Part shown: positions 8,366-48,700 of the stretch, one piece after another
Position numbering within the stretch: the stretch's first letter is position 1
Layout of the letters: each line of letters starts with the position of its first letter
Program-made: the position numbers and the translations under genes
IMG/VR virus record: IMGVR_UViG_3300009177_000003
Strand: one strand, 5' to 3'
Origin: an uncultured virus (IMG/VR IMGVR_UViG_3300009177_000003)
Taxonomy: Duplodnaviria; Heunggongvirae; Uroviricota; Caudoviricetes
DNA length: 64,000 bases
The notes under the pieces: generated by a model
Told to the model about the DNA's origin: nothing
The model's input: only the letters and a program-made list of their open reading frames with translations
Databases searched by the model: none

Positions 8366-8830
8366 ATGCCGTCTGATCTCGGCGGGCGTCCCGCGCATGA
8401 GGTAACGCCCGAGCGCCAGAACACCGTGCAGGTGATGCACGCCAATGGCATCTCGCACCGCATCATCGCCAAGGCCGTCGGCATCGACGTGAAGACGTTG
8501 CGCAAGTGGTATCGCACCGAGCTTCGCGACGCCCACGAGGAGGTCGAGGCGATGATGGGTGCCGCGCTGATCTCGGCCGCGAACAAGGGCGCCTGGGGGG
8601 CCGCGAAATACTGGCTGACCGTCAACGGCGCCGCGCGCTGGCGCGTGCCTGAGCGGCACCTCATCGGCGGCGATCCCGACTCGCCACCCGTCCGCGTCGA
8701 TGTCGACCAGATGACCGAGGCCGAGATTGCAGAAGAGCTCGACGCTATCCGAGAACGACGCCGAATTGCGGCTGGAGCGCGCGCTCTGGCAGAAGCACTG
8801 CCGAAGCGATCTAACGGCGTGGGCCACTGA
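8366..8830 (+). CDS. terS: Terminase small subunit
   Basis: GGRP start, HTH (IAKAVGIDVKTLRKWYRTEL), AAKYWL; upstream of TerL. Confidence 0.8.
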   Translation: MPSDLGGRPAHEVTPERQNTVQVMHANGISHRIIAKAVGIDVKTLRKWYRTELRDAHEEVEAMMGAALISAANKGAWGAAKYWLTVNGAARWRVPERHLIGGDPDSPPVRVDVDQMTEAEIAEELDAIRERRRIAAGARALAEALPKRSNGVGH

Positions 8831-10172
8831 GGCGCTGCGGGCCTACGGAGAAACGCCCGCCCGGCATCACGCCTTCCTGCTGCGCGAGCTCGAGACCGTC
8901 GCCCGCGGCGAGGTCGACCGGCTGATGATCTTCATGCCGCCCGGCAGCGCCAAGACCAGATACGCTTCGATCGTGTTCCCCGCCTGGATGATGGCGCAGC
9001 GCGTGGGGGTCGACATGATCGGCGCCTCGCACACCGGCGACTACGCCGAGGACCTGTCGCTGCAGCTCATCCGGCTGATCCAGGAGAACAGCGACACGCT
9101 CGGCTACAAACTGCTCAACGACAGCCGCAAGCTCTGGCGCACCGACAAACGCGGCCAATACCGGGCGGCGGGCGCCAACGGGGCCATCACCGGACGCCGC
9201 GCCGATCTCGTGCTGATCGACGACCCGATCAAAGGCCGCGAGGACGCCGACAGCGAGATCATGCGCGACAAGGTGTGGGGGTGGTATCGCGCCGAGGTCG
9301 TCACCCGGCTCAAGCCACGCGCCCGCATAGTGCTCATACAGACTCGCTGGCACCAAGACGACCTCGCCGGCCGGATCCTGAACAGCAGCCGCGCATCCGA
9401 ATGGCACGTCATCGAGCTGCCTGCCTTCGCCGGTGAGAATGACCCGATCGGCCGCGCACCCGGCGAGGCGCTCTGGCCGGAGTGGGAAGACAGGGTCGCA
9501 CTCGAACGCAAACGCGACGAGGTCGGCCCGCGTGAATGGTCAGCCCTGTTCCAGCAGCGCCCAACGCCGCTCGAAGGCGCGCTGTTCAGGCCCGCCCAGA
9601 TCCAGGTGCTCGATGCGCCGCCGGTCTGCGTCGCCACCGTGCGCGCCTGGGACCTCGCCGCCACCTCGGCAGCCCTCGGCGGCAACCCTGATTGGACGCG
9701 CGGCCTGAAACTCGGGAGGACGCAGAATGGTGGCTACGTCATCCTCGATCTTGTCTCGATGCGCGGCGGGCCCGACGAAGTGCTCGCGGCCGTAGTCAAC
9801 ACCGCCAAGCTCGACGGCAAGACGGTCAAGATCCGACTACCGGAGGATCCCGGCCAAGCCGGCAAGCAGCAGACGCTGTATTATGGCCGCCACCTCGCCG
9901 GTTACATGGTGACCAACGATCGCGAGACCGGCGACAAGGTGACGCGGGCCAGCCCAGTCGCCAGTCAGGTCAACATCGGCAACGTCGCCATGGTGCGCGC
10001 CTCCTGGAACCTGGAGCTGCGCGACGAGCTCATCGACTTCCCGAACGGGCTGCACGACGACATCGTCGATGCGCTCTCCGGTGCCTTCGGTGTGGTCGGC
10101 CTGGGCCTGCAGGGCATCCGCATTTCGCCCGAGGCCATGAGCCGCTTCGCCACCCGCGTGGTGCACCGATGA
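8727..10172 (+). CDS. terL: Terminase large subunit (start uncertain)
   Basis: MPPGSAKT Walker A, LIDDP Walker B, QTRWH, RAWDLA and HDDIVDA nuclease motifs. Confidence 0.95.
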   Translation: MQKSSTLSENDAELRLERALWQKHCRSDLTAWATEALRAYGETPARHHAFLLRELETVARGEVDRLMIFMPPGSAKTRYASIVFPAWMMAQRVGVDMIGASHTGDYAEDLSLQLIRLIQENSDTLGYKLLNDSRKLWRTDKRGQYRAAGANGAITGRRADLVLIDDPIKGREDADSEIMRDKVWGWYRAEVVTRLKPRARIVLIQTRWHQDDLAGRILNSSRASEWHVIELPAFAGENDPIGRAPGEALWPEWEDRVALERKRDEVGPREWSALFQQRPTPLEGALFRPAQIQVLDAPPVCVATVRAWDLAATSAALGGNPDWTRGLKLGRTQNGGYVILDLVSMRGGPDEVLAAVVNTAKLDGKTVKIRLPEDPGQAGKQQTLYYGRHLAGYMVTNDRETGDKVTRASPVASQVNIGNVAMVRASWNLELRDELIDFPNGLHDDIVDALSGAFGVVGLGLQGIRISPEAMSRFATRVVHR

Positions 10173-13021
10173 TCCGCCTGCTGCCGCGCCTGCGCCGGCC
10201 GACTGAGCCGCCGCGGCAGCGCGTCGAGCCGACCGTGACATGGCCACAGCGTGCGCCGATGAGGGTGTCGATCTCCGCGCTCGCCGCCAGCCTCAGCAAG
10301 CCGGCGCCGCCTGAGCCCAAGATCAACCCGTTCCAAATGCCTCGCTATCCCAAGGGCGTCCTGCCGAACGGCCGCACCGAGCTGGCGATGGACGAGAACA
10401 CGACGCAGATCGTCGCCTCGGCCTGGGACTTCGGGGCAGCCCTTCACGGGCTTTGGGCCGAAGGCATAGGGTTTATGGGATATCCCTACCTCGCGGAGCT
10501 CAGCCAACGCGCCGAGTATCGCCGCGCCTCCGAGGTCATCGCCGAGGAGATGACCCGCAAGTGGATCAAGCTGCGGGCGACCGGCGACGACGACAAGGCC
10601 GACAAGATCAGGGTGCTGGGCGATCGGCTCGAGCAGTTCCATGTGCGGGACGTGTTCCGCGAGGTGCTGGAATTCGACGGCTTCTTCGGACTCGGCTTCG
10701 TCTACCTGGACTTTGGCGACACCGACACCGACGAGCTCCGCACGCCGCTGGTAGCCTCGCCGGAGAAGATCGGCCATCACCGCCTCAAGGCAATCCGCGC
10801 CGTCGATCCGACCTGGACCGCGCCGAATCGCTACGACGCCCGCGACCCGACCTCGCCCACGTTCTACCGGCCGCAGTCGTGGTTCATGATGGGGCGGGAG
10901 ATCCACACGACCCGGCTGCTGTCCGTGGTCTCGCGTCCGCTGCCCGACATCCTGAAGCCCGCCTACAATTTCGGCGGCTTGTCGCTGTCGCAGCTCATGA
11001 AGCCCTACGTCGACAACTGGCTGCGCACCCGCCAGAGCGTCTCCGACCTGATCAACGCGTTCACCGTGTTCAACCTCTCGACGAACCTCGAGGGGCTGCT
11101 GACCGGCGCCGGCGGTGAGGCGGAGAACCAGCGCCTGGAGATCATGACCAACATCCGCAGCAACCGCGGGATGCTGGTGACCGACAAGGCCACCGAGGAG
11201 CTCAAGAACATCAGCGCGCCGTTGGGCACGCTCGACAAGCTGCAGGCGCAGAGCCAGGAGCAGATCTGCTCGGTGATCGCCGTGCCGCTCGTGAAGTATC
11301 TCGGCGTGACGCCATCGGGCCTGAACGCCAGCGCGGACGGCGAGATCCGCGTGTTCTACGACGGAATCAAAGCGAGGCAGGAGAAGGTGTGCACCGACAA
11401 GGTCCGCACCATCTTGCAGATCCTGCAGCTCGACGAGTGGAGCGAGGTCGATCCGGAGATCGACTTCGAATGGGTGCCGCTCTGGGAGCTGGACGAGGCG
11501 TCCGCGGCGACCGTGCGCAAGACCAACGCCGACACCGACGCCGTGCTGGTCGAGGTCGGCGCGATCGACCCGGACGAGGTGCGCCAGCGCATCGCCGCCG
11601 AGCCGGAAAGCCCCTATGCCGGGCTCGACCTCTCCAAGCCAGCCCCGGGCCCGCCCGCAGCCGCCGGCATGGAAGGCGAGATGCCGCCGGAGGGCGGCCA
11701 GGACATCGATCCGGCGACCTCGCACGCCATCTTCACCGCGCTGCGCGACCACGGTGTGGCGGATCCGACGGCCGAGGCGCTGCTCGAAGCGCTGCAGCTT
11801 GGCGGTGCCGGCGAGGACGTAGAGCAGGCGCTGCTCGCCGCCCTGCGCAGCGGGGACGATGCGGGCGTAGGCAAGGCTCTGATCGCTGCGTTGGGCGGGA
11901 CCGACAGCGTCTTCCTCGAGGCGCTCAAGGCGAACGACGACCAGCCCTTCCAGAAGACGCTGATGGGCGCGTTCGCGCAGGACGCTGCCGAGTTCAAGGA
12001 GTCCGACCATCCGCGCGGCCAGCCGGGCAATGCCGGGCAGTTCGGTCCGGGCGGCGGCGGCAAGGGAGCTGGCAAGAAGAAGGCCGGCGGAGAGGGGAAA
12101 GAGCAGGCCGGGCAGAAGGGCGCCGAGGGCGCCCCAGCCGCGGGCGAGGCAGCGAAGAAGTCGCCGGCTTCGAGCCTGATGCCGAACCCGAAGAGGTATT
12201 CCGAGGCGGAAGCTCGCGAGCTCGGCGCCAAGATCGCGGCCTCGGTCGGCGCCACGCAGGCGGTCAGCGAAGCCCGCCGCAAAGTCCTGGCCATGAACGG
12301 GGCGCAGAGTATCGATCCGGTCGAGAAGGACGGCCATATCGACGCCGCCGGCGAGTTCACACCCGAGCGGGCTGCGCTGCATGACAAGCTGCTGAACGAC
12401 ATCTTCACGCCCGAGGCTATCGAGCGGGCGCTGCCCAGGAAGGGGGAAAAGCCGGTGGTCGTCGTGCTCGGCGGCCGCGGCGGATCCGGCAAGTCGTGGC
12501 TGACCGACACAGAGAAGGGCGGACCGGTCGACAAATCGAAGTTCATCCTGATCGACGCCGACCACTTCAAGGGCGAGCTGCCGGAATATCAGGGCTGGAA
12601 CGCCGCCCAGCTGCACGAGGAAAGCGACCTCCTGGTCAGGCGGGCGGAAGATCGGGCGCGGAACCTCGGGCTGAACATCGTGCACGACGCCACCCTGAAG
12701 TCGGCCAAGAGCATCAACGAGCGGGTCGATCGCTACGCCAAGGACGGTTACGACATCCACGGCCACTACATGCACCTGTCGCCGGAGATGGCGACCGAGC
12801 GGGCGACCAAGCGGTTCGCCAGAGGCCAGGAGAAGACCGGCAAGGGCCGGTTCGTGCCGCCCGAGATCATCCTGGGCAACACCGACAACGAAAAGAACTT
12901 CGATGCGCTGATTCCGCTGTTCAAGGAATGGAGCGTGTTTGACAATAGCGGCGACGCCCCCAGATTTGTGGATGGCAGCAGGGACTATGGCGGTGCCAAA
13001 GGACAAGGACGCAAAGACTGA
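10169..13021 (+). CDS. Portal protein (DUF1073-type) fused to a C-terminal zeta-toxin-like P-loop kinase
   Basis: ATGA overlap with terL; portal motifs FMGYPYLAELSQ, YNFGGLSLSQL, GVTPSGLNAS; then GGRGGSGKS, IDADHFK, LHEES, VHDATL. Confidence 0.9.
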   Translation: MIRLLPRLRRPTEPPRQRVEPTVTWPQRAPMRVSISALAASLSKPAPPEPKINPFQMPRYPKGVLPNGRTELAMDENTTQIVASAWDFGAALHGLWAEGIGFMGYPYLAELSQRAEYRRASEVIAEEMTRKWIKLRATGDDDKADKIRVLGDRLEQFHVRDVFREVLEFDGFFGLGFVYLDFGDTDTDELRTPLVASPEKIGHHRLKAIRAVDPTWTAPNRYDARDPTSPTFYRPQSWFMMGREIHTTRLLSVVSRPLPDILKPAYNFGGLSLSQLMKPYVDNWLRTRQSVSDLINAFTVFNLSTNLEGLLTGAGGEAENQRLEIMTNIRSNRGMLVTDKATEELKNISAPLGTLDKLQAQSQEQICSVIAVPLVKYLGVTPSGLNASADGEIRVFYDGIKARQEKVCTDKVRTILQILQLDEWSEVDPEIDFEWVPLWELDEASAATVRKTNADTDAVLVEVGAIDPDEVRQRIAAEPESPYAGLDLSKPAPGPPAAAGMEGEMPPEGGQDIDPATSHAIFTALRDHGVADPTAEALLEALQLGGAGEDVEQALLAALRSGDDAGVGKALIAALGGTDSVFLEALKANDDQPFQKTLMGAFAQDAAEFKESDHPRGQPGNAGQFGPGGGGKGAGKKKAGGEGKEQAGQKGAEGAPAAGEAAKKSPASSLMPNPKRYSEAEARELGAKIAASVGATQAVSEARRKVLAMNGAQSIDPVEKDGHIDAAGEFTPERAALHDKLLNDIFTPEAIERALPRKGEKPVVVVLGGRGGSGKSWLTDTEKGGPVDKSKFILIDADHFKGELPEYQGWNAAQLHEESDLLVRRAEDRARNLGLNIVHDATLKSAKSINERVDRYAKDGYDIHGHYMHLSPEMATERATKRFARGQEKTGKGRFVPPEIILGNTDNEKNFDALIPLFKEWSVFDNSGDAPRFVDGSRDYGGAKGQGRKD

Positions 13022-13211
13022 GAAGCCCGCCACCGAGGGCGACGGGCAGGTGATGGGCTATCCGGCGGAATACTGGGAGAACGATGTGCCAGACCTGGGC
13101 ATCGATCCAGCAAAGCGCTATCGCGCGGCGGACCGCGAGAAGATGGATAGGCAGCTCGACGCCGATCGCAAGGTGATCGAAGACATCCGCCGCAGGCGCG
13201 GGGAAAGCTAG
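12987..13211 (+). CDS. Small charged protein, candidate antitoxin/immunity protein
   Basis: 74 aa from MAVPKDK, overlapping the 3' end of the zeta-like domain. Confidence 0.5.
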   Translation: MAVPKDKDAKTEKPATEGDGQVMGYPAEYWENDVPDLGIDPAKRYRAADREKMDRQLDADRKVIEDIRRRRGES

Positions 13212-13447
13212 CGGAGCATCGCCTTAGCGTCGGCGACGGTGTAGCCGGCGAGATCCTCGATAGTCTCGATGGCGTGCTCGGCCATCCCCTTCAGCAGCGC
13301 GAAATTGGCGTTGATCACGGCACGCTCGCCGTGGATCGCTGCCAGCTCGGGATCCGGGGTGGGCCCTCGATCCGCGCAGCTGCACATCGTCTCGAGGGTG
13401 AGCAGCAGCTTCTTGAACACGAAGGCCGACGGGACATTGCTGGCCAT
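13208..13447 (-). CDS. Hypothetical protein
   Basis: MASNVPSAF..., GAGGGGG RBS. Confidence 0.6.
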   Translation of the reverse strand: MASNVPSAFVFKKLLLTLETMCSCADRGPTPDPELAAIHGERAVINANFALLKGMAEHAIETIEDLAGYTVADAKAMLR

Positions 13448-13449
13448 GT

Positions 13450-13632
13450 CTACCCCCTCAGGGCCTTGGCCGCCTCGATAGCGTCGTCCGCCATCTTGGC
13501 TATGACCGGGTTCTTGTTGGCACCGTAGTGCGCCACGGCCGCGATCTTCTCGAGCGCGTCCATGAGGTTGGTGATGGTCATCCCCATGATGGCGACGAGC
13601 GCCACGTCGTGGGGCTTCGGGTTCGTGTTCAT
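13450..13632 (-). CDS. Hypothetical protein
   Basis: MNTNPKPHD..., ATGA coupling. Confidence 0.6.
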   Translation of the reverse strand: MNTNPKPHDVALVAIMGMTITNLMDALEKIAAVAHYGANKNPVIAKMADDAIEAAKALRG

Positions 13633-13826
13633 GACGCACCTGCTTTCTCGACATAGGCGACCATGGCAGCGCCGACGGTCTCCTCGGGCTCTCCGGCCAG
13701 GATCATCGGTCCGGCCATCTTGAACAGGCCGCCGATCTTCAGGACGCTGATCTGCATTCCGGAGCAATACCTGCCGTAGATCTTGGTGATCGCGGCATCG
13801 AGCTTCTTCGGGGACAATTTGGTCAT
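13629..13826 (-). CDS. Hypothetical protein
   Basis: 65 aa, AAAGGAG RBS. Confidence 0.7.
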   Translation of the reverse strand: MTKLSPKKLDAAITKIYGRYCSGMQISVLKIGGLFKMAGPMILAGEPEETVGAAMVAYVEKAGAS

Positions 13827-13838
13827 CGTCGGTCTCCT

Positions 13839-14024
13839 TTATTCTGGCATCATCACGTAGAACACTGGGCCAAGCCGCGGTTGAATAACCTCGCCGCCGA
13901 CCTTCTCCGCAGCGCGCGCAGCCTGCGTCTTGTTCGCGAAGGTCTTGGCGAAAACGCCGGTGGGGGTGGATTTCGCGAGAACCACGACCCCGCTGTTGAG
14001 TTTCGAAGTCAGAATGGCGGTCAT
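13839..14024 (-). CDS. Hypothetical protein
   Basis: 61 aa, AAAGGAG RBS. Confidence 0.7.
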   Translation of the reverse strand: MTAILTSKLNSGVVVLAKSTPTGVFAKTFANKTQAARAAEKVGGEVIQPRLGPVFYVMMPE

Positions 14025-14097
14025 AACTGGTCGCTCCTTTCGGGAGGTTGGTCAGTCCTGGTTGTCAGGGGCGCCGGGAACTCTCCCGGCAAGGTTT

Positions 14098-14126
14098 ATA
14101 TAGCGCGCCTGACCGTAGCAGTCAAG
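14098..14126 (-). promoter_or_regulatory. Promoter with TGAC-N7-GTCA operator
   Basis: Exact CTTGAC-N17-CTATAT; palindrome at 14110-14124. Confidence 0.85.
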
Positions 14127-14140
14127 CTATTTAGAGCCAA

Positions 14141-14263
14141 TCAATCGCAGTCCCAGTGCGTGAGCAGGCCGAATTCGTAGTGGGTCGCGCAGTGCTTACC
14201 GGGTGGCGGTTCGCAGGCTGCGAGCAGCAGCGCGGTGGCCAGGATGGCCAGGATCGTCTTCAT
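14141..14263 (-). CDS. 40-aa lipoprotein (not in the ORF track)
   Basis: MKTILAILATALLLAACEPPPGKHCATHYEFGLLTHWDCD; LAAC lipobox; AAGGAG RBS. Confidence 0.7.
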   Translation of the reverse strand: MKTILAILATALLLAACEPPPGKHCATHYEFGLLTHWDCD

Positions 14264-14289
14264 CGGTGGTTACTCCTTGGAGGTTGGGG

Positions 14290-15183
14290 TTAAGCGGCGA
14301 GCGCCAGTGGCGCCCAGTCATTGGCCGGCTTGGCGAAGGGAATCGCCTCGACGGCGTGGATCGACATCGCGGCGACTGCCGGGGCGATGATCTTCTCGGC
14401 GTTCTCGACGAACACCGACCAGAGCTCGTAGTCGCCCTCGTCCTCGAGCAGCCACGCGAACGCTTCGGTCAGGAAGTTCGCGGCGACCGCCCTGTTCTTG
14501 GTGATCGGCCGTCCCTGACCGACCTGGGCCCGGATCCGGGCTGCGTCGGTGGTCACCATGGTGCCGGGAGAGGCCTCGCTGATCACCGCGAGGAGTGCCG
14601 CCAGCTTCTTCTTCGCGGCAGCGATCCCGAGCAGGTGCAGCCGCTTCGGCTTGATCTCGCCGCCCAGCAGGTTCGCCAGCTCCGCGACGGAGAAGGCCGA
14701 CTGATTGGACGGGACGGAGACGGTGAAATCCTCGGTCCCCAGGATGGCTGCCGCGGCCCGGTAGGCCTCGTAGGGCGGCAGCTCGCCCTTCTGCACCGGC
14801 ACCAGCGCGTCGTGTCCGGCGCCGATCACGAGCTCGACCAGCCCCTTCCACTCGGCGAGCAGCTTCAGGCTCTCGGCCTGATTGCCGATCACGTCGGGCA
14901 TCACGATGTGCATCCTGGTTCCGGGCGCCTCGTGCACCAGCTTGGTGATGGTCGCCGCGACCTTGGGCCAGTTCATCGGCTCGCCGTGGGTGCAGGCGGT
15001 AAACGCGCCGCTGTCGACGAACACCTCGCCGCCCCGGCTCGCATACTCGATCATCATGTCCCACGCGGCACCGCCGACGGTGAGCTCGGCCAGGGAAACG
15101 CCGATCGCCGATCCGGCGACGATGTAGCCCCGCATGATGTTGGGCGCACTCGCGCCCGACCGATAAGAGGTCGTCACTAACAT
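14290..15183 (-). CDS. TGT (tRNA-guanine transglycosylase)-fold protein, DpdA-like
   Basis: VFVDSGAF, MPDVIG, VPVQKG, LHLLG, TTD in the order expected for TGT-fold enzymes. Confidence 0.55.
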   Translation of the reverse strand: MLVTTSYRSGASAPNIMRGYIVAGSAIGVSLAELTVGGAAWDMMIEYASRGGEVFVDSGAFTACTHGEPMNWPKVAATITKLVHEAPGTRMHIVMPDVIGNQAESLKLLAEWKGLVELVIGAGHDALVPVQKGELPPYEAYRAAAAILGTEDFTVSVPSNQSAFSVAELANLLGGEIKPKRLHLLGIAAAKKKLAALLAVISEASPGTMVTTDAARIRAQVGQGRPITKNRAVAANFLTEAFAWLLEDEGDYELWSVFVENAEKIIAPAVAAMSIHAVEAIPFAKPANDWAPLALAA

Positions 15184-15233
15184 CGGAAGTCTCTCGGGAA
15201 AGTGGAAGCCGGGAACCGTGCCCGGCGAGTCCT

Positions 15234-15262
15234 ATGTAATACGCCTGACTGTAAGCGTCAAG
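15234..15262 (-). promoter_or_regulatory. Promoter with TGAC-N7-GTCA operator
   Basis: CTTGAC-N17-TTACAT; palindrome at 15246-15260. Confidence 0.8.
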
Positions 15263-15285
15263 CTAATTAAATAGCGGCGGGCGAT

Positions 15286-15600
15286 TTAGTTCCGGAAGTA
15301 GGCCATGCCGTAAGGCGTGCAGCCGGCCAGAGGGTCGGGGTCGAAGATGTTGCCCCGCTTGCCCTTGGCGGGGGCCTTCCAGCCGGCGGACTTCAGCAGG
15401 TCGCCGGTGGTCTGATCGATGAAGCCGTAGGCGCTCCGCGAGCTGCCCTGGGCGAGCACGATTCTGGCGTATTTGGTCGCCGGCTCGATGGTGATCGTCG
15501 GCGGGGTGCCGACGTTGGCGGCCTTCTGCCAATGAGCGTGGACGAAGCCCTGCAGCTTGGTCTGGAAAGCGGACAGGTCGGCGGTGGTGACTTTGTTCAC
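15286..15600 (-). CDS. Conserved phage early protein
   Basis: FIDQTTGDLLKSAGWKAPAKGKRGNI, a motif recurrent in small phage proteins. Confidence 0.75.
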   Translation of the reverse strand: MNKVTTADLSAFQTKLQGFVHAHWQKAANVGTPPTITIEPATKYARIVLAQGSSRSAYGFIDQTTGDLLKSAGWKAPAKGKRGNIFDPDPLAGCTPYGMAYFRN

Positions 15601-15613
15601 GGTCTGAATCCTT

Positions 15614-15871
15614 TCAGGTTGCCATACCGCAGAGGTATTCGTTGGCGCGCTTGCCGAGGTCGTTGGCCTTCGCGGCCTCTGCGGCCTCTGCGTTGGCTTT
15701 CATCGCGGCCAGGATGAAGTGCTCCTTCACTCCGGTCGCCGCGGAGATCGCGTCCGAGCTCATGCGCATGGCGATCAGTTTGTTCAGCGCGGTGCTCTCG
15801 TCGGCCGGGGTCGCCTTGCGGCCGAGGAACAGGCCTTCCGTCAGCACTTTCAGCGCTTCAGCGTAGGTCAT
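15614..15871 (-). CDS. Hypothetical protein
   Basis: MTYAEAL..., GGAG RBS after the promoter. Confidence 0.65.
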   Translation of the reverse strand: MTYAEALKVLTEGLFLGRKATPADESTALNKLIAMRMSSDAISAATGVKEHFILAAMKANAEAAEAAKANDLGKRANEYLCGMAT

Positions 15872-15896
15872 CGTCAGACTCCGTTCTTGCAGGCAG

Positions 15897-15926
15897 AGAA
15901 TATCCGGCTTGACCATATGCGTCAAG
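15897..15926 (-). promoter_or_regulatory. Promoter with TTGAC-N7-GTCAA operator
   Basis: CTTGAC followed by TATTCT; perfect palindrome at 15909-15925. Confidence 0.75.
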
Positions 15927-15949
15927 CTATTTAACGGCGGACAGGGGAT

Positions 15950-16540
15950 TTATTTGCCGCCAGCGCAGCAGTGGGTCTTGTGCGCCGCGGCCATGATCTC
16001 GCGCTCCATGTCGAAGCCGCGGGTCTTCTCCTGGTCATAGGTCAGGGTCTTCACGTAGGCGTCGCCGTAATCGCTCACGACGATCTCGACCACCTCGACC
16101 GGGTATCCCTTGGCGGCCAGCCTGTCGCGCGCTCTGGTCAGCAGCGCGGGGCTGATCGTCCGATTGCAGAAAATGAAGTCCGCGCCGAAGTGCACCAGCT
16201 TCGCATCCGGATCCGGCATCCAATTCCGCACCGGGCCGTAGACGCCGCCGCTGCCGGCCGTGCCCTCGTCGCTGGCGGTCATCGCCGTGCCATCCGGTGA
16301 CAGCCAGGAATCGCGGCCGAACTTCAGGTCGATCATGCCGTCGAAGCCGCCGCCCTGGAATTGCTTGGCAACCGGCTCGACCGCGGCGGAGCAGGGACCG
16401 TCGGTCCACCTCACGTCGATCGACGCGCCGCCGGCGTATTTGTCGGACTTGACCGAGAACTTGACGCCGGGGAAGGCCTTCTTGAGCGCGCCCCGCACCA
16501 GCTTGGCGGTCTCGGTGACGGAAACGTAAGTCGACTTCAC
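15950..16540 (-). CDS. LPD29-like (large polyvalent protein-associated domain) protein
   Basis: ETAKLVRGALKKAFPGVKFSVKS...GASIDVRWTDGP...FDGMID. Confidence 0.75.
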   Translation of the reverse strand: MKSTYVSVTETAKLVRGALKKAFPGVKFSVKSDKYAGGASIDVRWTDGPCSAAVEPVAKQFQGGGFDGMIDLKFGRDSWLSPDGTAMTASDEGTAGSGGVYGPVRNWMPDPDAKLVHFGADFIFCNRTISPALLTRARDRLAAKGYPVEVVEIVVSDYGDAYVKTLTYDQEKTRGFDMEREIMAAAHKTHCCAGGK

Positions 16541-16887
16541 GGGATGAATCCTTTCAGGTTGCCGTAGCGGCCCAGATAAGCGCCGGCCCGGCTGGTCGGG
16601 TTGTTCGGAAACTCGTGCGCGATGTGCGCGTCCTCCGCGTCCTGCTCATCGGCGAACAGCGGCATATCGGCGGGCACCTCGAACACCTGATATTTCCTGT
16701 GAGCGGTCTCCCGGCAGATCACGACCTTGCCGTTCCACTCCCAGACCGCCACGACCGGGCTGTAGGCGTAGGGGCTCGGAATCGGATCAGTCTGGAACCG
16801 CGCCAGCCATGCGATTGGCTCCTCGCTCGCTTCCGCGATCCACTGCGCGTGGCCGGCGTACGACCGAATGGTCTTGATGCACTTCAT
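16537..16887 (-). CDS. Hypothetical protein
   Basis: 116 aa, AAGGAGG RBS. Confidence 0.7.
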   Translation of the reverse strand: MKCIKTIRSYAGHAQWIAEASEEPIAWLARFQTDPIPSPYAYSPVVAVWEWNGKVVICRETAHRKYQVFEVPADMPLFADEQDAEDAHIAHEFPNNPTSRAGAYLGRYGNLKGFIP

Positions 16888-16900
16888 CGAATGTCCTCCT

Positions 16901-17161
16901 TCACAGTCCGTGCTCTGGGCCCATGCCCAGCTTCTTGCAGGCCTCGTAAGCGGCGCTTGTCTCGGCCTCGACCTTCCTCTGGCCCATCGGGGTCACGAAC
17001 ACCGAGCCGAGGTAGCGGTCTTCTTGCGCGAGCCTGAAGTTGTAGGCTGCCAGCGCCTTCTTCTGTGCCGCGGTCAACTTCACCTTCGGGGCGAAGGTGG
17101 ACTCGGCTTTCTCGGCAGCCTTCAATGTCGCTGCCAGCTTCTTCCACTGCTCGTTGGTCAT
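16901..17161 (-). CDS. Hypothetical protein
   Basis: 86 aa, GGAGG RBS. Confidence 0.7.
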   Translation of the reverse strand: MTNEQWKKLAATLKAAEKAESTFAPKVKLTAAQKKALAAYNFRLAQEDRYLGSVFVTPMGQRKVEAETSAAYEACKKLGMGPEHGL

Positions 17162-17164
17162 CGC

Positions 17165-17311
17165 TCAGCCTCCCATCCACGCGTTCAACCAAGAGGTCGC
17201 CCACAGCCGGGCGAACGCAGTCCCGACGACGTAGGGGTTGGCGCTCAGGGGAGCCCCGGCCAGGAAAGCGGCCTTGCCGCCCTTCATCGCGGCGAACCTC
17301 ATTGCAATCAT
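17165..17311 (-). CDS. 48-aa Rmf/CrpP-like small protein (not in the ORF track)
   Basis: GKAAFLAGAPLSANPY...LWATSWLNAW fits G-x2-A-x3-G...NPY...W; AGGAGG RBS. Confidence 0.55.
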   Translation of the reverse strand: MIAMRFAAMKGGKAAFLAGAPLSANPYVVGTAFARLWATSWLNAWMGG

Positions 17312-17360
17312 CGGAACCTCCTGGGGAAAGCCGAGGAGCCACTCTCACCCGGCACTCTCT

Positions 17361-17389
17361 ATATAATCCACATGACGAATATCGTCAAG
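17361..17389 (-). promoter_or_regulatory. Promoter with TGAC-N7-GTCA operator
   Basis: CTTGAC-N17-TTATAT; palindrome at 17373-17387. Confidence 0.8.
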
Positions 17390-17417
17390 CGGATTATGCG
17401 GTGATTCGCAGAAAAGT

Positions 17418-17660
17418 TCAGGCGCCCACCGCCGCGTAGTAGCCGGGAGCCTTGACGCTCCCGTATCCGAACTTCGCCTCGCTGCCGGTGAAGAACATGA
17501 TCGCGAACCTGATCCTGGCCACTTCGGCCGTGGTCAGCGTCTTCGGCAGCTTGGCATCGATCGGCATCTTCCAGTTCGGCTTCGGCGCGACGAGGGCGAA
17601 TGCCGCCTCGAGCTCCTCCTGGGTGTAGCCGCCCATCAGGGTGTTGGGGTCGAAGGCCAT
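17418..17660 (-). CDS. Hypothetical protein
   Basis: MAFDPNT..., AAAGGAG RBS, NWKMPI...APGYY. Confidence 0.7.
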   Translation of the reverse strand: MAFDPNTLMGGYTQEELEAAFALVAPKPNWKMPIDAKLPKTLTTAEVARIRFAIMFFTGSEAKFGYGSVKAPGYYAAVGA

Positions 17661-17683
17661 AGCTTTGTCTCCTTTCGAGAGGG

Positions 17684-17914
17684 TCATAGAAGAGGGAGGC
17701 CGGCGACGGCCTCCGCCTCGGTATCGGCCTGCCGGATGATCTCCGGCCCGCCCGTCACCGGGTCAGTGAGGTGGGCGTCCGCGACCAGCCAGCACACGGC
17801 ATCGAACCGAGTGTGGATCGCCCAGACGGCATACCGCCGGTATTCGCCGAACAGCCGCTTCTTGGAAGCGGCCTTGCCGGCCAGGGCGGGGACGTTGGAG
17901 AGGGGAGCAGCCAT
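17684..17914 (-). CDS. Hypothetical protein
   Basis: 76 aa, AGGAGG RBS. Confidence 0.7.
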   Translation of the reverse strand: MAAPLSNVPALAGKAASKKRLFGEYRRYAVWAIHTRFDAVCWLVADAHLTDPVTGGPEIIRQADTEAEAVAGLPLL

Positions 17915-18029: not shown

Positions 18030-18845
18030 ATGGCTGCGGCGAGAAAAATTCGCACTGGCGGCAAGCCGAAGACGCTCGCAGCGGTGCGGCCGAATGTTGG
18101 GCTCGAGGCGGCATACCGCCGGGCGCTCGACACGCTGGTCGGCGAGATGCACGCCTCGCTCGTCCGCTTCCTGAGCGCGCAGTATCGGCGCCGGCCTCCG
18201 GTGATGGCGCAGGACAGTCCGGCCTCCGACATGGCGGCGGCGATGCGGATCCTGCGGCGGCGGTGGGAATCGCGCTTCGACGAGGCCTCCGACCGGCTGG
18301 CGACCCACTATTCGCGGGCGATCGCGCGGCGCTCCGACGCGAACCTTCGCTCGATCCTCAAGCGGGCAGGGATCGCGGTAGAGTTCAAGATGACGCCCGC
18401 GATGACCGACGTCATGCACGCCACGATCGGCGAGCAGGTCAGCCTGATCCGTTCGATCGCGAGCGAGCACCTGACGCAGGTCGAAGGCCTCGTGATGCGC
18501 AGCGTGCAACAAGGGGGCGATCTGGCGACTCTGACGCGGCAGCTGCAGCATCGGTATGCGGTGACGCGCCATCGCGCAGCGCTGATAGCCCGCGATCAGA
18601 ACTCGAAGGCGGTTGCGGCGATGACGCGAGCTCGTCAGGAGGAGCTCGGCATAACCGAGGCGGTCTGGCTGCACAGTCGTGGCGGACGCGAGCCGCGGCC
18701 AACGCACCTCGCGAACGACGGAGAGAAGTTCGTTGTGAGCGAGGGGTGGTTCGATCCTGACCCCAAGGTGCGGCAGCGGATCTGGCCTGGGCAGCTGATC
18801 AACTGCCGCTGTGTGAGCAAGCCGATAGTGCCGGGATTCACATGA
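18030..18845 (+). CDS. Head morphogenesis protein (MuF / SPP1 gp7 family)
   Basis: RAALIARDQ, WLHS..R.PRPTH, PGQLINCRC. Confidence 0.9.
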   Translation: MAAARKIRTGGKPKTLAAVRPNVGLEAAYRRALDTLVGEMHASLVRFLSAQYRRRPPVMAQDSPASDMAAAMRILRRRWESRFDEASDRLATHYSRAIARRSDANLRSILKRAGIAVEFKMTPAMTDVMHATIGEQVSLIRSIASEHLTQVEGLVMRSVQQGGDLATLTRQLQHRYAVTRHRAALIARDQNSKAVAAMTRARQEELGITEAVWLHSRGGREPRPTHLANDGEKFVVSEGWFDPDPKVRQRIWPGQLINCRCVSKPIVPGFT

Positions 18846-19944: not shown

Positions 19945-21906
19945 ATGCCGCTCGATGATCTGCATCGCGTGCTCGGCGATCTGCTGGGCTACGAGCACTG
20001 GTGGCAGGCCACCTCTCCCGCCAGAGATCAGGCGATCAATGCGGCCGGGCTGGCGATGCGCAAGCCGGATGGGCGCGTGCTGTTCGTGCGCCACGGCCAG
20101 CGCGGCACCTGGGAATTCCCTGGCGGCATGATCGAGCCGGGCGAGGCGCCAGAACAGGCAGCGCAGCGCGAAGCGATCGAGGAAGCCGGCGCACCTGAAG
20201 GCTTGGCACTTACGCCAGCCGCGGAGATCGACAGCAACGGCGTGCACTACACGCTGCTCATTGCCGGGGTGCCGGAAGACTTCGTGCCGTCGCTGGCTGA
20301 CGGCGAGCTCGTCGACTGGCTTTGGGCATCGCCAGAGTCCCCACCAGACCCGTTGCACCCCGGCCTCCCCGAGGCGCTCGGCTGTCTCGCGCAGGATCGA
20401 CAGACCATCGCCCAGGACGCGGAGCTCGCTTTCGACCGCAGCGTCCGGACCTATGACCAGAACGGCCACCTCAACGTCGCGCTCGCACCGATCAGCAAGG
20501 CGACCGTCAACGAATACTACGGCCACGAGATCCCCGACGCAGACAAGCTCGGGCTCGACCCCGAGCGTCGCTATCGCCTCTACCGCGATCCCGAAGAGCT
20601 CGCGAAGGCGGCCAGCACGTTCGACGGCAAGCCGATCCTACTCAAGCACCAGCCGGTCAGCGCCGACGCGCACCCGCGCGACCTGACCGTCGGATCGATC
20701 GGCAGCGGCGCCCGCTTCGAGCATCCATATCTGCTCGCTCCGCTGTCGTTCTGGGACCGGGACGCCATCCAAGGCATCGAGCGCGAGGATCGCAAGCAAC
20801 TCTCTGCCGCATATCGCTACCGCGCCGACATGACGCCCGGCACGGCCGACGGACAGCGCTACGACGGCGTCATGCGTGACATCGCCGGCAACCACCTTGC
20901 CTTGGTCCCAGAGGGAAGGGCCGGAGCGGATGTCGTTGTGGGTGACAGCAAACCGAAGGAGACACACATGCCCGCAGCCAAGCCCGCGGCGGCCAAGGTG
21001 CAGATGTCGCGTCAGGCGTTGTTCCTGAGTGGTGTCTGCACAGCCTACGCGCTGCCGAAACTGGCCACCGACCAGAAGATGCCGGACCTGCGCCCGCTGT
21101 TGAAGGGCGTGACCCACAAGACGTGGAAAGACAAGCGCACAGCGTTCGAGGCCGAGTTCGGCAAGACGCTGAAGCCGCGTCTCGCGCAGGACGCTTCGAT
21201 GGAAGACTTCCATAGCTTCCTCGACGGCTTCAGCAACGGCGGAGAGGGCGCCGCGCCAGCGTCCGCGGAAGAGCTGGCCGACGATCCGTTGAAGCCGAAG
21301 ACCGCCGACGCCGAGCCGTTCGCCGGCGAAGAGACGCCCGACGAAGAGCTGCTCGAGGCGGATACGCCAGCGGGCAAGCTGATGAAGTTCCTGCAATCGG
21401 TCCTCACTCCCGAAGAGCTCGCCCAGGCCAAAGCGATCGCCCAGGGCAATGGCGAGGAAGCCTCGCCGGCGCCGCCCGACAACGGAGAGCAGCCGCCGAG
21501 TGAAGACCAAGGCAACCCGGAGATCGATGACATGCAGCGTCGCCGCGAAGGTGAGCAGAACGAGAAGCCGCCAATCACCAAGCCGGCGATGGACGCAGCA
21601 ATCGCCGCGGCGGTGAAAGCCGAGCGTGAGCGCTCGCTTGCTGTGCGGGATGCCGAGGAAGCCGTCCGGCCGTGGATCGGCAAGCTGGCGATCGCCCAGG
21701 ACAGCGCCGAGGCGATCTACAAGCTGGCGCTCGACAGCCTCGGCATCGACATCACCGACGTCCATCCATCGGCTTACAAGACGATTCTGCTGCGTGAGCC
21801 GAAGCCCGGCGAGCGACAGAGGACCGAGGTCGTCGCGATGGATGCAGCGCAGAGCAAGGAGTTTGCCGAGCGCTATCCCGGCGCGCTGTCGCTGAAGCGC
21901 GCCTAA
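19945..21906 (+). CDS. NUDIX hydrolase fused to DUF2213-type prohead protease/scaffold
   Basis: NUDIX box [23 protein letters not shown]; then [29 protein letters not shown]; acidic scaffold tail. Confidence 0.9.
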
Positions 21907-45709: not shown

Positions 45710-48700
45710 ATGGCCGGCCTCGTCCCGATTGCCGGCTTTCCGATCGCCTCTGGCGGCGACACGATCAGATCCCTTGACGGTCGTGGCACCCTCACCGCCA
45801 ACGGCATCCACAATCCCCTCGGCCGAGCGACACTCGTCGGTCAGGCGACGCTGTATGCTGCGTGGGGACCGCCGCCGCCCGCGCAGCAGCCGGTGCTGGG
45901 CTTTGCTCCGCTCGGCGCCGGACCGCTCGCTGCTATCGGCCTTCAGTTTGCCGACCAGCTAATCCTCCGGGGCGCGGGCACCCTCACCGCCAACGGCGTC
46001 GTCACGAAGTTCGGTAGCGCCACCCTGGCAGGCGTCGGCACTGTCAGAGGCTCCGGCACACATACGCCGCTGCTTGCCGCGACGATCAGCGGCGCGGGCA
46101 CGATCGCCGCGACCGCCCGGCAGAGGATGTCAGTCTCCGGCGCGCTTGCCGGGCTTGGCACGATCACCGGTGCAGGGTCGCACACGCCGAGGCTTTCGGC
46201 TGCGCTGGCAGGAACCAGCGCGCTCACTGTCACGAGCCGCCTGCTGCTGCCCACGAGCGCCACGCTCAGCGGATCGCACAGCCTCATTGCGAGCGCGGTG
46301 CTGCGGCTGGTCGCTGCCTGGGAGGCCGATGGCGCCGGCACGTTCGATGCCGATGCCTCGCATACCGCATTCGGCGCGGGCATCTTCGCCGGCCTCGGCG
46401 CGATCAATGCGACCGCGCGGCAGCGATGGGTGACCAACGCCGGCACATTCAGCGGCGCCGGCACGGTCAGCGGCAGCATCGGGCGGCGGACCTATGCTTC
46501 GGCGCAGCTCAACGGCCTCGGCGCTGTGGCACCTGACGCCGATCAGCGCTGGACTATCAGCGGCCGATGCGACGGTCTCGGCACGCTCAGCGCGGGTGCC
46601 ACCTCCACCGGCCTGACGACGGCCGATCTCGACGGCCTGGGCGCCGTCATCGCGACGCCGATCGCGCGGCTGCTGGCGAGTCGCACACTTCCGGGCCTTG
46701 GCGCCGTCATCGGCAATGTCACACATAACCCGCTGGCTGCCGGTGCATTGGCGGGTGCGGGCACGTTCACCGGCTCGGCGAACCGGCTGGTCCTGTCGGC
46801 CTCGGCGACGCTGCGCGGCACGCACAGCCTGACCGCCAACGCAACGCACACGCCGCTGCTGGCCGCGACGCTGGCGGGCCTTGGCACCGTGGGGTTAAGC
46901 GGCGGCGGCACGAGCGGGAACAGCGCGATCGAGCTGGACGGGCTGGGCACGTTCAGCGCAGCGGCGCAGGCGCCCCGGCGCGCGGCGAGCGCGGAACTCG
47001 ATGGTCTCGGCACGCTGACGCCCGATCAGTCGGTGCGGATGCGGCTGGCGGCAAGCGCGCCCCTCTCCGGTATCGGCACGATTGCCGCCGACGGGGCACG
47101 AGCGACGCAAAGCGGCACGACCACGCTCGCCGCGCTCGGCACCGTCACGGGTGCCGGGCAGATCGCCTTCGTCGCCAGTGCCACGCTGTCGGGCAGCCAT
47201 ACGCTGACCGCGAACGCCCAGGTCATCGCCAGCGCCGCAGCCTCGCTGGCCGGGCTTGGCACGCAGAGCGCCGCGGTCTCGCTCGGCACTCTGACGATGG
47301 CCGCGCAGCTCGCCGGCCTCGGCACCTTCTCCGGACAAGCGCAGGGCTTCTCGATCTGGTTCTCGTCGGCGACGTTGAACGGCATCGGAGCGGTGCTGCC
47401 GTTCGTGCGCGCCTCGACCGCGACGTACTACGACCAATCCGGCAATCTGATCGAGGTCGCGGCCAACGTGCCGCGCTTCGGCTACGATCAGGTGACGCAC
47501 GCGCCTCAGGGGATGCTGCTCGAGGCGGCCGGGACGAACTACAGTCGCAATCCGCGCATGGTGGGGTTGGTGCCGGGCACGATCGGCACGCTGCCGACCG
47601 GCTACGCCGCATGGTCGATGCTCGGGCTGAACCGTGATCTGAGCAGTCAGGTCATTAACGGCGAGACGTTCGGTGTCGCCCGCATGTACGGAACCATCGG
47701 TTCCGGCGGCATGATTCTCTACATCGACAACAGCACCGGCGCCACGCTGATGCCGGTGGTGCAAGGCGACACGGTGACGATCTCGGTGGATCTGGCGATC
47801 ATTGCCGGCGTCCATCCGACCGCGACATTCACCATGGAAGCGGCGACGCTGACCTCGGGCTCCGTGGCGCTCACCACCTATGCCGGACCGAATATCTTCA
47901 GCCAGTTGAGTTCGACGCCACAGCGGTTCTCCTGGACCTTCACCGTCAACGACGCGACGGCCGCACTGTTGCGCGTGTTCATGGGTGCTGCGCGCGGCAG
48001 CGCCGGGGGATTCGCAGCAGACTTCACGCTGGCCTGGGGCGGGCCGCAATTCGAGAAGAACGTCGCCCGCGCCACCACGCTGATCCTGCCACCGGTCGGT
48101 CAGGTGGCAGTCTCGACCCGCGCGCAAGAGCTGGCGCCGGTGCTGCTCGATGTTGTCGCCAGCGAACTCGATGGCATCGGCACGTTCGCCGGCAACTCGC
48201 GCGCGATCACCCATACGATCTCGGCGACGCTCGCCGGTATAGGCACGATTACCCCCACCGGCACGCGATTCACCTTCGCCGGCACGACGCAGATCAATGG
48301 CGTGGGGACGATTGCCGGGACGCTCACCAGCGCCTCGCAGATCGGCGGCGAGCTTGACGGGCTGGGCACGACCGCGACGTTCTCGCGCGCCTCGAATGCG
48401 ACGTATTTCGACCAGGACGGCAATTTCGTCGAGGTCGGTTCGAACGTCCCGCGGTTCACCTATAACCCGATCACCCTCGCGCCGCTCGGGATGCTGCTGG
48501 AAGGCGCGACGACCAACTACATCCGCAACCCACGCGCCGAGGGCGCGACTGTCGGCACGCCGCTTGCCTATCCGCAGTTCTGGAACAACGTCGGCGGGCA
48601 GAACGGCCTGACCATCACGCCGGTCGGCGCTGGTACCATTAATGGGATCCCCTACGTTGACATCCGTTGGCAGGGCACCAGCACCGGCAACTTCAACGTG

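Follow-up and report, generated by a model that had tools for sequence, protein, structure and literature searches.

The stretch of DNA considered here (64,000 nucleotides, hereafter referred to as the window) comes from an uncultured virus of the class Caudoviricetes (IMG/VR record IMGVR_UViG_3300009177_000003). Next to its large terminase gene lies a single open reading frame (ORF) in which a phage portal protein is continued, through a long tether, by a P-loop kinase module of the Zeta_toxin family. The tether carries a conserved linear motif (hereafter referred to as the punctuation motif), and a small ORF, encoding a putative partner of the kinase, overlaps the end of the gene. The features of this locus are as follows.

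10169..13021, + strand: portal-kinase ORF (portal core, linker, punctuation motif and zeta-like kinase module), a single 950-aa frame
10484..11542, + strand: portal core, Phage_portal_3 (PF06381), residues 106-458, Pfam expectation value (E) 1.8e-78
11711..11932, + strand: Ala/Leu/Asp/Gly-rich helical repeat region, residues 515-588, predicted as five short helices with a predicted local distance difference test score (pLDDT) of ~54-70
11975..12064, + strand: punctuation motif AQDAAEFKESDHPRGQPGNAGQFGPGGGGK, residues 603-632, a single copy in the window
12065..12169, + strand: Gly/Lys/Ala/Glu low-complexity spacer, residues 633-667, pLDDT ~28
12170..12988, + strand: Zeta_toxin-family P-loop kinase module, residues 668-940
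12470-12496, + strand: Walker A motif GGRGGSGKS (G768-GRGGSGK775-S776), fitting GxxGxGK[ST] and invariant in 34/34 modules and 21/21 portal-zeta proteins
12560-12562, + strand: putative catalytic Asp, D798, in IDADHFK, aligning to zeta D67 of VIDNDTFK
12686-12700, + strand: D840-A-T842-L-K844, aligned to the GTXR motif region of zeta
12987..13211, + strand: small ORF (putative partner), 74 aa from the ATG at 12987, with the core motif GYPAEYWENDVPD followed by a basic helix

The large terminase gene (8727-10172) ends in a stop codon that overlaps the ATG of the portal-kinase gene. The GC content at third codon positions (0.82, computed over the longer ORF 9692-13021, which contains the gene in the same frame) is typical of coding DNA in a window of 65% GC. 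The landmarks given in the preliminary description, which had been drawn up from the sequence and its ORFs, proved exact: AQD (residues 603-605, 11975-11983), EFKESDHPRGQPGNAGQF (11990-12043), GGRGGSGKS, IDADHFK (12551-12571), LHEES (12611-12625) and VHDATL (12680-12697). The same frame is open in two IMG/VR contigs, with 1 or 2 amino-acid differences, located in the portal part. Metagenome contigs were compared over 11400-13300, the four runs carrying rhizosphere metagenome labels: a contig from another run displayed nine substitutions over 11543-13300 (5 synonymous, 4 amino-acid changes) and no indels, and a further contig, covering 11400-12178, was identical. Neither a stop codon nor a frameshift separates the portal from the kinase in these assemblies, and assembly error is ruled out as the source of the fusion. 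The PF06381+PF06414 architecture is also recurrent, being found in at least 37 further proteins among the matches listed, including an 80% identical variant (P0004), and in eight of 67 non-redundant viral ORFs.

The core of the protein is that of a real portal, as first described, given its Phage_portal_3 match, its match to the PHROGs portal family phrog_146 (E 2e-100), its similarity to solved portals and its position next to the terminase. The nearest solved structures are those of gp19 from the Pseudomonas phages E217 and Pa193 (PDB 8fvh and 9b41, E ~1e-39). The full-length AlphaFold model has a low predicted template modelling score (pTM 0.41) and was therefore read only for order and disorder along the chain. 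In this model, residues 1-100 are unstructured, the portal core (~101-487) is confidently folded (pLDDT mostly 70-95), a disordered stretch (488-513) precedes the helical repeat, the segment 590-663, which includes the punctuation motif, is disordered, and the C-terminal module (667-940) is again confidently predicted. Sequence and model together indicate a flexible tether of ~170 residues between portal core and kinase. The C-terminal barrel of portal proteins faces the capsid interior, so the extension should hang into the head. The model of Pa193 gp19 covers residues 94-528 of the 765-aa chain and ends in this C-terminal barrel (9b41, PMC11456595); the Pa193 chain thus likewise has a long C-terminal part, but the zeta module is absent from gp19 of both phages.

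The C-terminal module is zeta-like, as anticipated in the preliminary description, with sequence, profile and fold in agreement and the catalytic residues retained. Residues 756-904 scored 84.5 bits with Pfam Zeta_toxin (PF06414, E 9e-24), for which the cut-off is 22.3. A profile of 34 modules, sharing just 24-66% identity with the window copy, matched zeta (7.5e-13), PezT (1.3e-12), AvrRxo1 (3.6e-7) and Pnkp1 (7e-5) in the PDB. The AlphaFold2 model of the module alone, based on 34 homologs, was confident (pLDDT 94.5, pTM 0.90). All ten top Foldseek chains were zeta (3q8x, 1gvn), AvrRxo1 (4z8q and related entries) or PezT (2p5t), with E values of 1e-9 to 4e-8 and template modelling (TM) scores of 0.53-0.66, identifying a zeta-type phosphotransferase fold. 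Polynucleotide kinases (PNKs) and PFKFB followed at ~1e-4, the PNK of C. thermocellum at ~2e-4. A PNK assignment was ranked low, because zeta, PezT and AvrRxo1 match far better in both sequence-profile and Foldseek comparisons.

In zeta and PezT, the substrate is deprotonated by an Asp residue, D67 and D66, respectively (PMC6362051), to which D798 corresponds here; R882 aligns to zeta R158 in the profile alignment. The residues K775, H816, E818, D798, D840, T842, R882, R894, N907 and E908 are invariant in the 34 modules and in 21 portal-zeta proteins. The invariance of catalytic residues in such divergent modules makes it very likely that the kinase is active. The possibility that the module is a degenerate, catalytically dead domain serving as a structural spacer would fit the alteration of GTXR to ATLK, but is hardly credible given this invariance, the confidence of the model and the nature of the differences in the variant strain, which are mostly synonymous or conservative.

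The identity of the substrate is a separate matter. Zeta toxins phosphorylate UDP-GlcNAc, yielding a product that inhibits MurA and other peptidoglycan-synthesis enzymes, and the GTXR motif (zeta G117-T121) binds UDP-GlcNAc in zeta and PezT (PMC6362051). The aligned segment here reads D840-A-T-L-K-S845, with G replaced by A and R by K, and the family varies at this site as D[AGSVC]T[LM][KRSA], some members reading DGTLR or DGTMR. With GTXR altered to A841-T-L-K844, specificity for UDP-GlcNAc is unsupported, though membership of the Pfam family holds. Furthermore, profile alignment showed the module to share N-terminal '(T/W)PER..LH' and 'H-x-E-S' motifs with AvrRxo1 and not with zeta; AvrRxo1 is a member of the zeta family with NAD as its substrate (PMC6362051). 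The phosphorylation of UDP-GlcNAc, which the preliminary description had taken over from the zeta/PezT kinases, is thus not established for this module, and we give roughly equal weight to a UDP-sugar, an NAD-like nucleotide and something else. A tblastn search with the module of 50,697 deposited phage records matched solely three haloarchaeal virus records, at 28.6% identity; with no close relative in these records, there is no cultured model phage. In one further copy of the module (L025:447-1163), on a viral contig, the small ORF is kept but an in-frame stop, due either to sequencing error or to decay of the copy, lies between the catalytic Asp and the GWNA motif.

The gene upstream of the portal-kinase gene is the large terminase gene rather than an antitoxin gene of the epsilon/PezA type. 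The small ORF lies downstream, exactly at the position first reported (12987-13211), its first 35 nt being shared with the portal ORF. Alternative starts are available at a TTG at 12939, giving a longer product, and at an internal GTG or ATG (13050/13053); the 52-aa form from the ATG at 13053 would retain the entire predicted interface with the kinase. A word-based homolog search with this ORF matched only itself. Nevertheless, in the locus with the closest distinct module (L021, 58% identical), a homologous small ORF (phmmer 6e-8, 32% identity) overlaps the module stop. ORFs starting from -150 to +120 nt of the kinase stop were then surveyed in 68 non-redundant loci, a count that leaves out ten duplicates, a locus whose frame is interrupted by a stop, and two loci that are copies of the window's own phage. 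They formed two large clusters, an 'ERPDLYDGYD' type (22 loci) and a 'KLGPIP..AFEND' / 'EHFDDD' type (15 loci), and a third group consisting of the window and L021 pair ('P..YWENDVPD'). Hidden Markov models (HMMs) of the clusters found further members exclusively beside kinase modules, some of them on the opposite strand. With adjacency defined as a start within -200 to +600 nt of the module end at E <=1e-3, a member of the small-ORF family adjoined the module in 47 of the 68 loci (42 on the same strand, five on the opposite strand only), and two matches lay just outside this zone, among 5299 ORFs searched. None was found in 78 zeta-less portal loci, a difference with a Fisher p value of 4e-22, which overstates independence.

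A profile of the window ORF and 12 relatives recovered 110 representative clusters from 1.84 billion proteins, nearly all 46-90 aa in length. Pfam and PHROGs searches with 14 small ORFs gave only IlvB_leader (0.21) and one PHROG of unknown function (0.003). Modelling of the kinase module in complex with the small ORF product gave a score of 0.90 in three runs, the best of three controls reaching 0.01; in the benchmark for this score, 116 of 157 solved complexes and two of 215 mismatched pairs attained this level, counts that are only approximate because custom alignments were used. The runs agreed in at least 94% of contacts, and the pLDDT of the partner was at least 76. On the kinase side, the predicted contacts involve (module numbering, to which 659 is added for protein numbering) residues 107 and 112, flanking the P-loop, 137-139, at the catalytic Asp, 153-158, 180-186 (DATLK) and 237-245; on the partner side, they involve residues 22-41 (VMGYPAEYWENDVPDLGIDP) and the next helix. 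The model supports binding of the small protein to the kinase, and contacts over the P-loop, the catalytic Asp and DATLK have the geometry expected of an inhibitor plugging an active site. The notion of the small ORF as a partner of the kinase, put forward in the preliminary description, is thus borne out by conserved adjacency and by a complex model that puts the small protein over the active site, and the gene probably encodes an inhibitor that plugs the kinase. A small cognate ORF beside the toxin module is also expected of head-protein-borne polymorphic toxins.

The product might instead be a packaging chaperone or adaptor, or the ORF a mere conserved overlapping frame. The N-terminus is of low complexity, the start codon is uncertain and the ORF belongs to no Pfam or PHROG family; AvrRxo1-ORF2, moreover, was reportedly first described as an interactor or chaperone. 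The predicted inhibitor geometry argues against such a role, the family members are separately called genes of 46-90 aa in 110 representative clusters, and the location of the small ORF on the opposite strand in five loci indicates an independent gene rather than a frame artefact. We therefore consider this explanation unlikely.

The preliminary description had singled out AQD as a putative protease cleavage site. This tripeptide turned out to be only the variable, weakly conserved N-terminal flank of a longer motif of ~25 residues, in which D605 is not invariant, and it was rejected as a specific site. The longer element, AQD...EFKESDHPRGQPGNAGQFGPGGGG, is reused before unrelated cargo domains on phage head proteins. 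Proteins matched by residues 600-950 that lack the kinase align over ~30 residues at 72-88% identity, and the consensus between unrelated domains is [AG]xDAx[FW]xE[SAG][DK]HPR(GQPGNA/xxD)GxFGxGGG. A regular-expression census found 146 instances of this type (hereafter referred to as HPR-type) in 119 of 239 retrieved proteins, with no more than five instances of the strict pattern per protein. The H and R residues were fixed by the search pattern itself; the Glu at motif position 3, three residues before the His, was present in 143 of the 146 instances. The motif lies upstream of the P-loop in 119 of 214 proteins with the P-loop of this family (median distance, 132 residues), and many of the remaining proteins are fragments. 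In 21 portal-zeta proteins, E611, H614, R616, G623, F625 and G626 are invariant, a degree of conservation equal to that of the catalytic residues, in a segment predicted to be disordered (pLDDT < ~50). The variants were distributed among carriers as follows.

PF06381 portals (n=45): HPR-type, 39; Y-x-PDQPRD..G[KR][FW] type, 0
DUF2213-protease carriers (n=4): HPR-type, 4; Y-x-PDQPRD..G[KR][FW] type, 0
HK97-type portals, PF04860 (n=5): HPR-type, 0; Y-x-PDQPRD..G[KR][FW] type, 4
S78-protease carrier (n=1): HPR-type, 0; Y-x-PDQPRD..G[KR][FW] type, 1
MuF carriers (n=11): HPR-type, 0; Y-x-PDQPRD..G[KR][FW] type, 0
Mu portals, PF06074 (n=5): HPR-type, 2; Y-x-PDQPRD..G[KR][FW] type, 0

The motif variant tracks the carrier and its head machinery, not the cargo, and the motif was therefore taken to be recognised by lineage-specific head machinery. 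It is probably a processing or packaging signal. T4-type prohead proteases cut at L/I-x-E sites, which the invariant [FW]-x-E may recall, an analogy that serves as a lead. In P0263, a single 345-aa ORF, a small-partner domain is joined to a 'WDENLHPRDEDGKW' motif and to a domain bearing an HExxH signature, so a partner gene can directly adjoin, or be fused to, the next cargo led by such a motif.

The kinase module is not confined to PF06381 portals. Among the matches listed, its carriers included at least five HK97-type portals (PF04860), at least two Mu portals (PF06074), at least nine MuF proteins and at least four DUF2213 proteases; in the set of 67 viral ORFs, it was joined, in addition to the eight PF06381 portals, to three Mu portals, one MuF protein and one S78 protease. 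The module also occurs in solo proteins. Polypeptides with the kinase, among the matches listed, also hold NUDIX, ADP-ribosyltransferase, type IB topoisomerase, InPase and Acb1 (PF23474) domains, the last of these in P0040, P0044, P0054 and P0067. Conversely, the extension of homologous portals is variable. In a survey of the nearest 79 of 359 IMG/VR portal-core relatives (kinase HMM threshold 1e-10), the kinase was found only in the window's own phage. Of the 72 closed portal ORFs among these nearest relatives, 52 end no more than 40 aa past the core and 20 extend for at least 100 aa; twelve of these 20 extensions were included in a Pfam scan. ADP-ribosyltransferase domains were found in L101, L123 and L155, a ddrB-like ParB domain in L138 and L152, InPase in L140 and Acb1, which counters the cyclic-oligonucleotide-based anti-phage signalling system (CBASS), in L157 (3508-4041, E 8e-31). 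In L101, the portal core of which is 87% identical to that of the window, the ADP-ribosyltransferase lies behind a helical repeat similar to residues 515-588 and a WEETKHPRDDDGKF motif. No Pfam family was found in the extensions of L119, L144, L146 and L176. That of L146 (7216-8436), 407 aa long and located behind 'WIEGDHPRDDIGQF', has a different P-loop, AGGSGSGKSE, and a 'DSTLSN' stretch, and may be a very divergent zeta-like kinase below the HMM threshold; no small-partner match adjoins it. The portal core of L174 (7057-8772) contains an apparent intein (Intein_splicing, E 5.5e-6, below the Pfam cut-off), and two portal-zeta proteins, P0025 and P0041, likewise have PF14890 among their listed domains.

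Homologous portals thus hold ADP-ribosyltransferase, Acb1, InPase, ParB-like or no cargo, and the same kinase is found on three portal families, MuF proteins and proteases, as is characteristic of polyvalent proteins. The occurrence of Acb1 both as portal cargo and beside zeta modules points to portal-delivered anti-defence enzymes. These observations bear on the possibility of a kinase that remains attached to the portal throughout, without release or injection, and that either works inside the capsid or at its portal vertex, perhaps as a PNK on DNA ends, or serves only as an internal structural or 'plug' domain. PNKs are the next-best matches of the module (Pnkp1, 7e-5; C. thermocellum PNK, ~2e-4), and a flexible tether of this length could permit work while attached. 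However, the matches to zeta, PezT and AvrRxo1 are far better (1e-9 to 1e-13), the presence of the module on MuF proteins, proteases and solo proteins fits a cargo rather than a portal function, sister portals bear Acb1 and ADP-ribosyltransferases, which act on host-cell molecules, and a partner predicted to cover the active site suggests an activity harmful in the cytoplasm. Permanent tethering is therefore quite unlikely.

The same distribution is difficult to reconcile with a kinase working only in the producing cell, late in infection, in peptidoglycan weakening for lysis or metabolic shutdown, with the small protein as a timer and the portal fusion as a co-expression device. The gene does sit in the late head operon, and phosphorylated UDP-GlcNAc inhibits MurA and other peptidoglycan enzymes (PMC6362051). 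Nevertheless, this explanation would account neither for the repeated fusion to capsid-interior proteins (three portal families, MuF and prohead proteases) nor for a preceding motif with variants tracking the head lineage, and we regard it as very unlikely.

We consider it moderately probable that the locus encodes an effector kinase destined for the virion and, separately, its cognate inhibitor, which would make it a portal-borne form of the polyvalent and MuF-toxin systems; cleavage, packaging as a free protein, ejection, toxicity and the substrate are the elements that we infer. The portal C-terminus, facing the capsid interior, would bear a small-molecule kinase of the zeta/AvrRxo1 type on a long disordered tether, and the twelve portal copies per virion would place the kinase inside the head. 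The tether motif, [FW]xE-xx-HPR-x(3-8)-GxF-GxGGG, would be read by the head machinery of the phage lineage, most likely by the DUF2213 prohead protease, cleavage by which would release the module. Having exited with the DNA, the kinase would phosphorylate a nucleotide-type metabolite (a UDP-sugar or NAD-like molecule) at an early stage of the following infection and so serve host takeover or counter-defence. Acb1, ADP-ribosyltransferase, ParB-like, NUDIX and InPase as sister cargo suggest such a purpose and point away from simple killing. The small downstream protein would serve as the cognate inhibitor: bound over the P-loop, catalytic Asp and substrate cleft, it would silence the kinase in the producing cell.

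Several results weigh against this interpretation. Sequence comparison did not establish homology between the window's small ORF and either large cluster: the hhalign probability was 39% over 12 columns for cluster B and 2% for cluster A, the cluster-B HMM scan of the loci did not match it, and a two-sequence search with the HMMER filters off gave a marginal cluster-B match with an E of 0.015 and 3 bits. The ORF is thus treated as the same kind of partner by position, motif and complex model, not by proven homology. The Fisher value for adjacency is inflated, because the loci are related and the HMM seeds were partly chosen by position. The high complex score can reflect memory of the epsilon-zeta, PezAT and AvrRxo1-ORF2 structures; the partner has no detectable sequence similarity to epsilon, PezA or AvrRxo1-ORF2. 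The correlation between motif and carrier involves small numbers outside PF06381 and may reflect shared ancestry, and the lack of the motif in MuF-borne copies indicates that it is not required for carriage. Because GTXR is not strictly kept, the substrate of zeta need not be that of this module. Finally, the 765-aa chain of Pa193 gp19 was modelled only over residues 94-528 (PMC11456595), and its remainder may be either cleaved or merely disordered.

A bolder version of this interpretation, which is possible but doubtful, would make the HPR...GxF element and its HK97-type counterpart, Y-x-PDQPRD-..-G[KR][FW], a lineage-specific 'cut-and-load' signal for the prohead protease, through which portals, proteases and solo proteins would become a plug-and-play set of vehicles for packing arbitrary enzymes into the capsid for injection. 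The zeta-like kinase would then be a counter-defence cargo acting on an NAD-like or signalling nucleotide, rather than a cell-wall poison, and the 'IP..[FW]E[ND]D' proteins would constitute a new family of active-site-plug antitoxins dedicated to this kinase.

The closest relatives of the module, epsilon/zeta and PezA/PezT (1gvn, 3q8x, 2p5t), belong to the same Pfam family and have the same fold, and the Walker A Lys, D67/D798 and R158/R882 are kept. In these systems, a small protein likewise lies over the nucleotide/substrate site, as is predicted here, but the toxin is free, whereas here it is the C-terminal module of a virion portal. The partner gene here is located downstream, and its product lacks a DNA-binding domain and does not detectably resemble epsilon or PezA. 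The toxins themselves differ in GTXR, replaced here by ATLK, and in the additional N-terminal 'PER..LH' region, which zeta lacks. AvrRxo1-ORF2 is also small and encoded downstream of its effector. AvrRxo1-ORF1, a Xanthomonas type III effector (4z8q-4z8v), has a zeta-like fold and shares the W/TPER..LHE and H-x-E-S motifs with the module; it was crystallised with a separate binding partner, ORF2, according to the entry titles, and is a delivered effector, not an addiction toxin. However, it gives a weaker profile match than zeta (3.6e-7 against 7.5e-13), it reads VDKRLS where the module reads DATLKS, its delivery is by type III secretion into plant cells rather than from a phage head, and ORF2 is dissimilar in sequence to the small ORF.

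The T4 Alt and internal proteins are head-packaged enzymes that the prohead protease trims behind a Glu (L/I-x-E) and that are injected along with the DNA. These are separate polypeptides, however, brought into the head by an N-terminal capsid targeting sequence rather than by fusion to the portal. Head-borne effectors with small downstream ORFs, in MuF proteins, and polyvalent proteins are already known from the published texts. As described in PMC5512222 (Iyer et al. 2017), polyvalent proteins combine a virion structural domain with exchangeable effectors, as here, with zeta-like kinases fused to MuF, PBECR, 2H and InPase fused to portals, and injection predicted; a gene with an LPD29 domain lies nearby in the window. 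According to the main text of PMC5576092 (Jamet et al. 2017), in MuF polymorphic toxins, again as here, a head protein carries a variable toxin at its C-terminus and its gene is followed by a small ORF, which is proposed as immunity and accompanies 89.4% of 191 muf toxin genes. Pairs of a toxin and a small ORF on MuF head proteins, cited as precedent in the preliminary description, are thus indeed in print. The words 'zeta' and 'kinase' are absent from that main text. In contrast to the MuF toxins, the carrier here is the portal itself, and the phage's own MuF protein (18030-18845) is short and cargo-free. The combination of portal and zeta, the lineage-specific punctuation motif and the small-partner family were not found in the literature searched, with the qualification that the supplements of PMC5512222 and PMC5576092 may list such architectures.

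Phage proteins entering with the DNA act before phage gene expression, and very few have been studied. The locus is a compact, testable case, with a 12-copy portal carrier, a linear motif that may act in release or packaging, an enzyme whose active site can be recognised, and a predicted inhibitor. Should the motif function in the proposed way, it would explain the swapping of ADP-ribosyltransferase, Acb1, NUDIX, InPase and zeta kinase domains on head proteins across metagenomic phages, and phage engineers would gain a natural tag with which to load capsids with enzymes. The small partners would add an unannotated antitoxin family, and the identity of the substrate would tell whether phage zeta-like kinases target the cell wall or nucleotide metabolism and immune signalling.

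The window belongs to a contractile-tailed phage with a GC content of ~65%, and the portal-kinase gene is part of its late head operon. The genes follow the order small terminase, large terminase, portal-kinase, a leftward block, MuF, NUDIX-DUF2213, major capsid protein, sheath and an E217/Pam3-like baseplate. The neighbouring features are listed below.

8727..10172, + strand: large terminase, Pfam Terminase_6N and Terminase_6C
14290-15183, - strand: 297-aa protein with a weak match to queuine tRNA-ribosyltransferase (phrog_887, E 5e-6)
15286-15600, - strand: DUF7717 protein, in the leftward block
15950-16540, - strand: protein with an LPD29 (large polyvalent protein-associated) domain, in the leftward block
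18030..18845, + strand: MuF-like head morphogenesis protein, 271 aa, without a cargo domain (Phage_Mu_F, E 4.5e-14; phrog_324, E 4.7e-76)
19945..21906, + strand: NUDIX fused to a DUF2213 head maturation protease, 653 aa (NUDIX, E 2.8e-17; DUF2213, E 7.5e-48)

The NUDIX-DUF2213 protein, which also matches the head maturation protease family phrog_2229 (E 7e-120), is a second enzyme on a head protein of the same phage and the candidate processing protease. The NUDIX domain lies N-terminal to the protease, and the HPR motif is absent between the two; in the relatives P0010, P0011 and P0017, NUDIX, HPR motif, zeta kinase and protease are all on one polypeptide. The leftward block, consisting of about ten small genes (13450-17914, - strand), splits the head operon between portal and MuF. 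No tRNA was found in the window, and no integrase family was present among the Pfam matches of the 73 window ORFs scanned. The highest-GC stretch (0.69-0.73) is filled by a 3332-aa ORF (45710-55708, + strand), rich in Ala, Gly, Thr and Leu, with many 'ATLAGLGT'-like repeats. It matched no Pfam family, but its centre (residues ~1570-1820) matches phrog_5939 'tail protein' (E 7.6e-45), and the product is probably a giant fibre or tail protein built of repeats. The closest match to the portal-kinase protein in genome collections is a portal-X-kinase protein on a contig from an uncultured Lichenihabitans metagenome-assembled genome, the module of which is 61% identical to that of the window.

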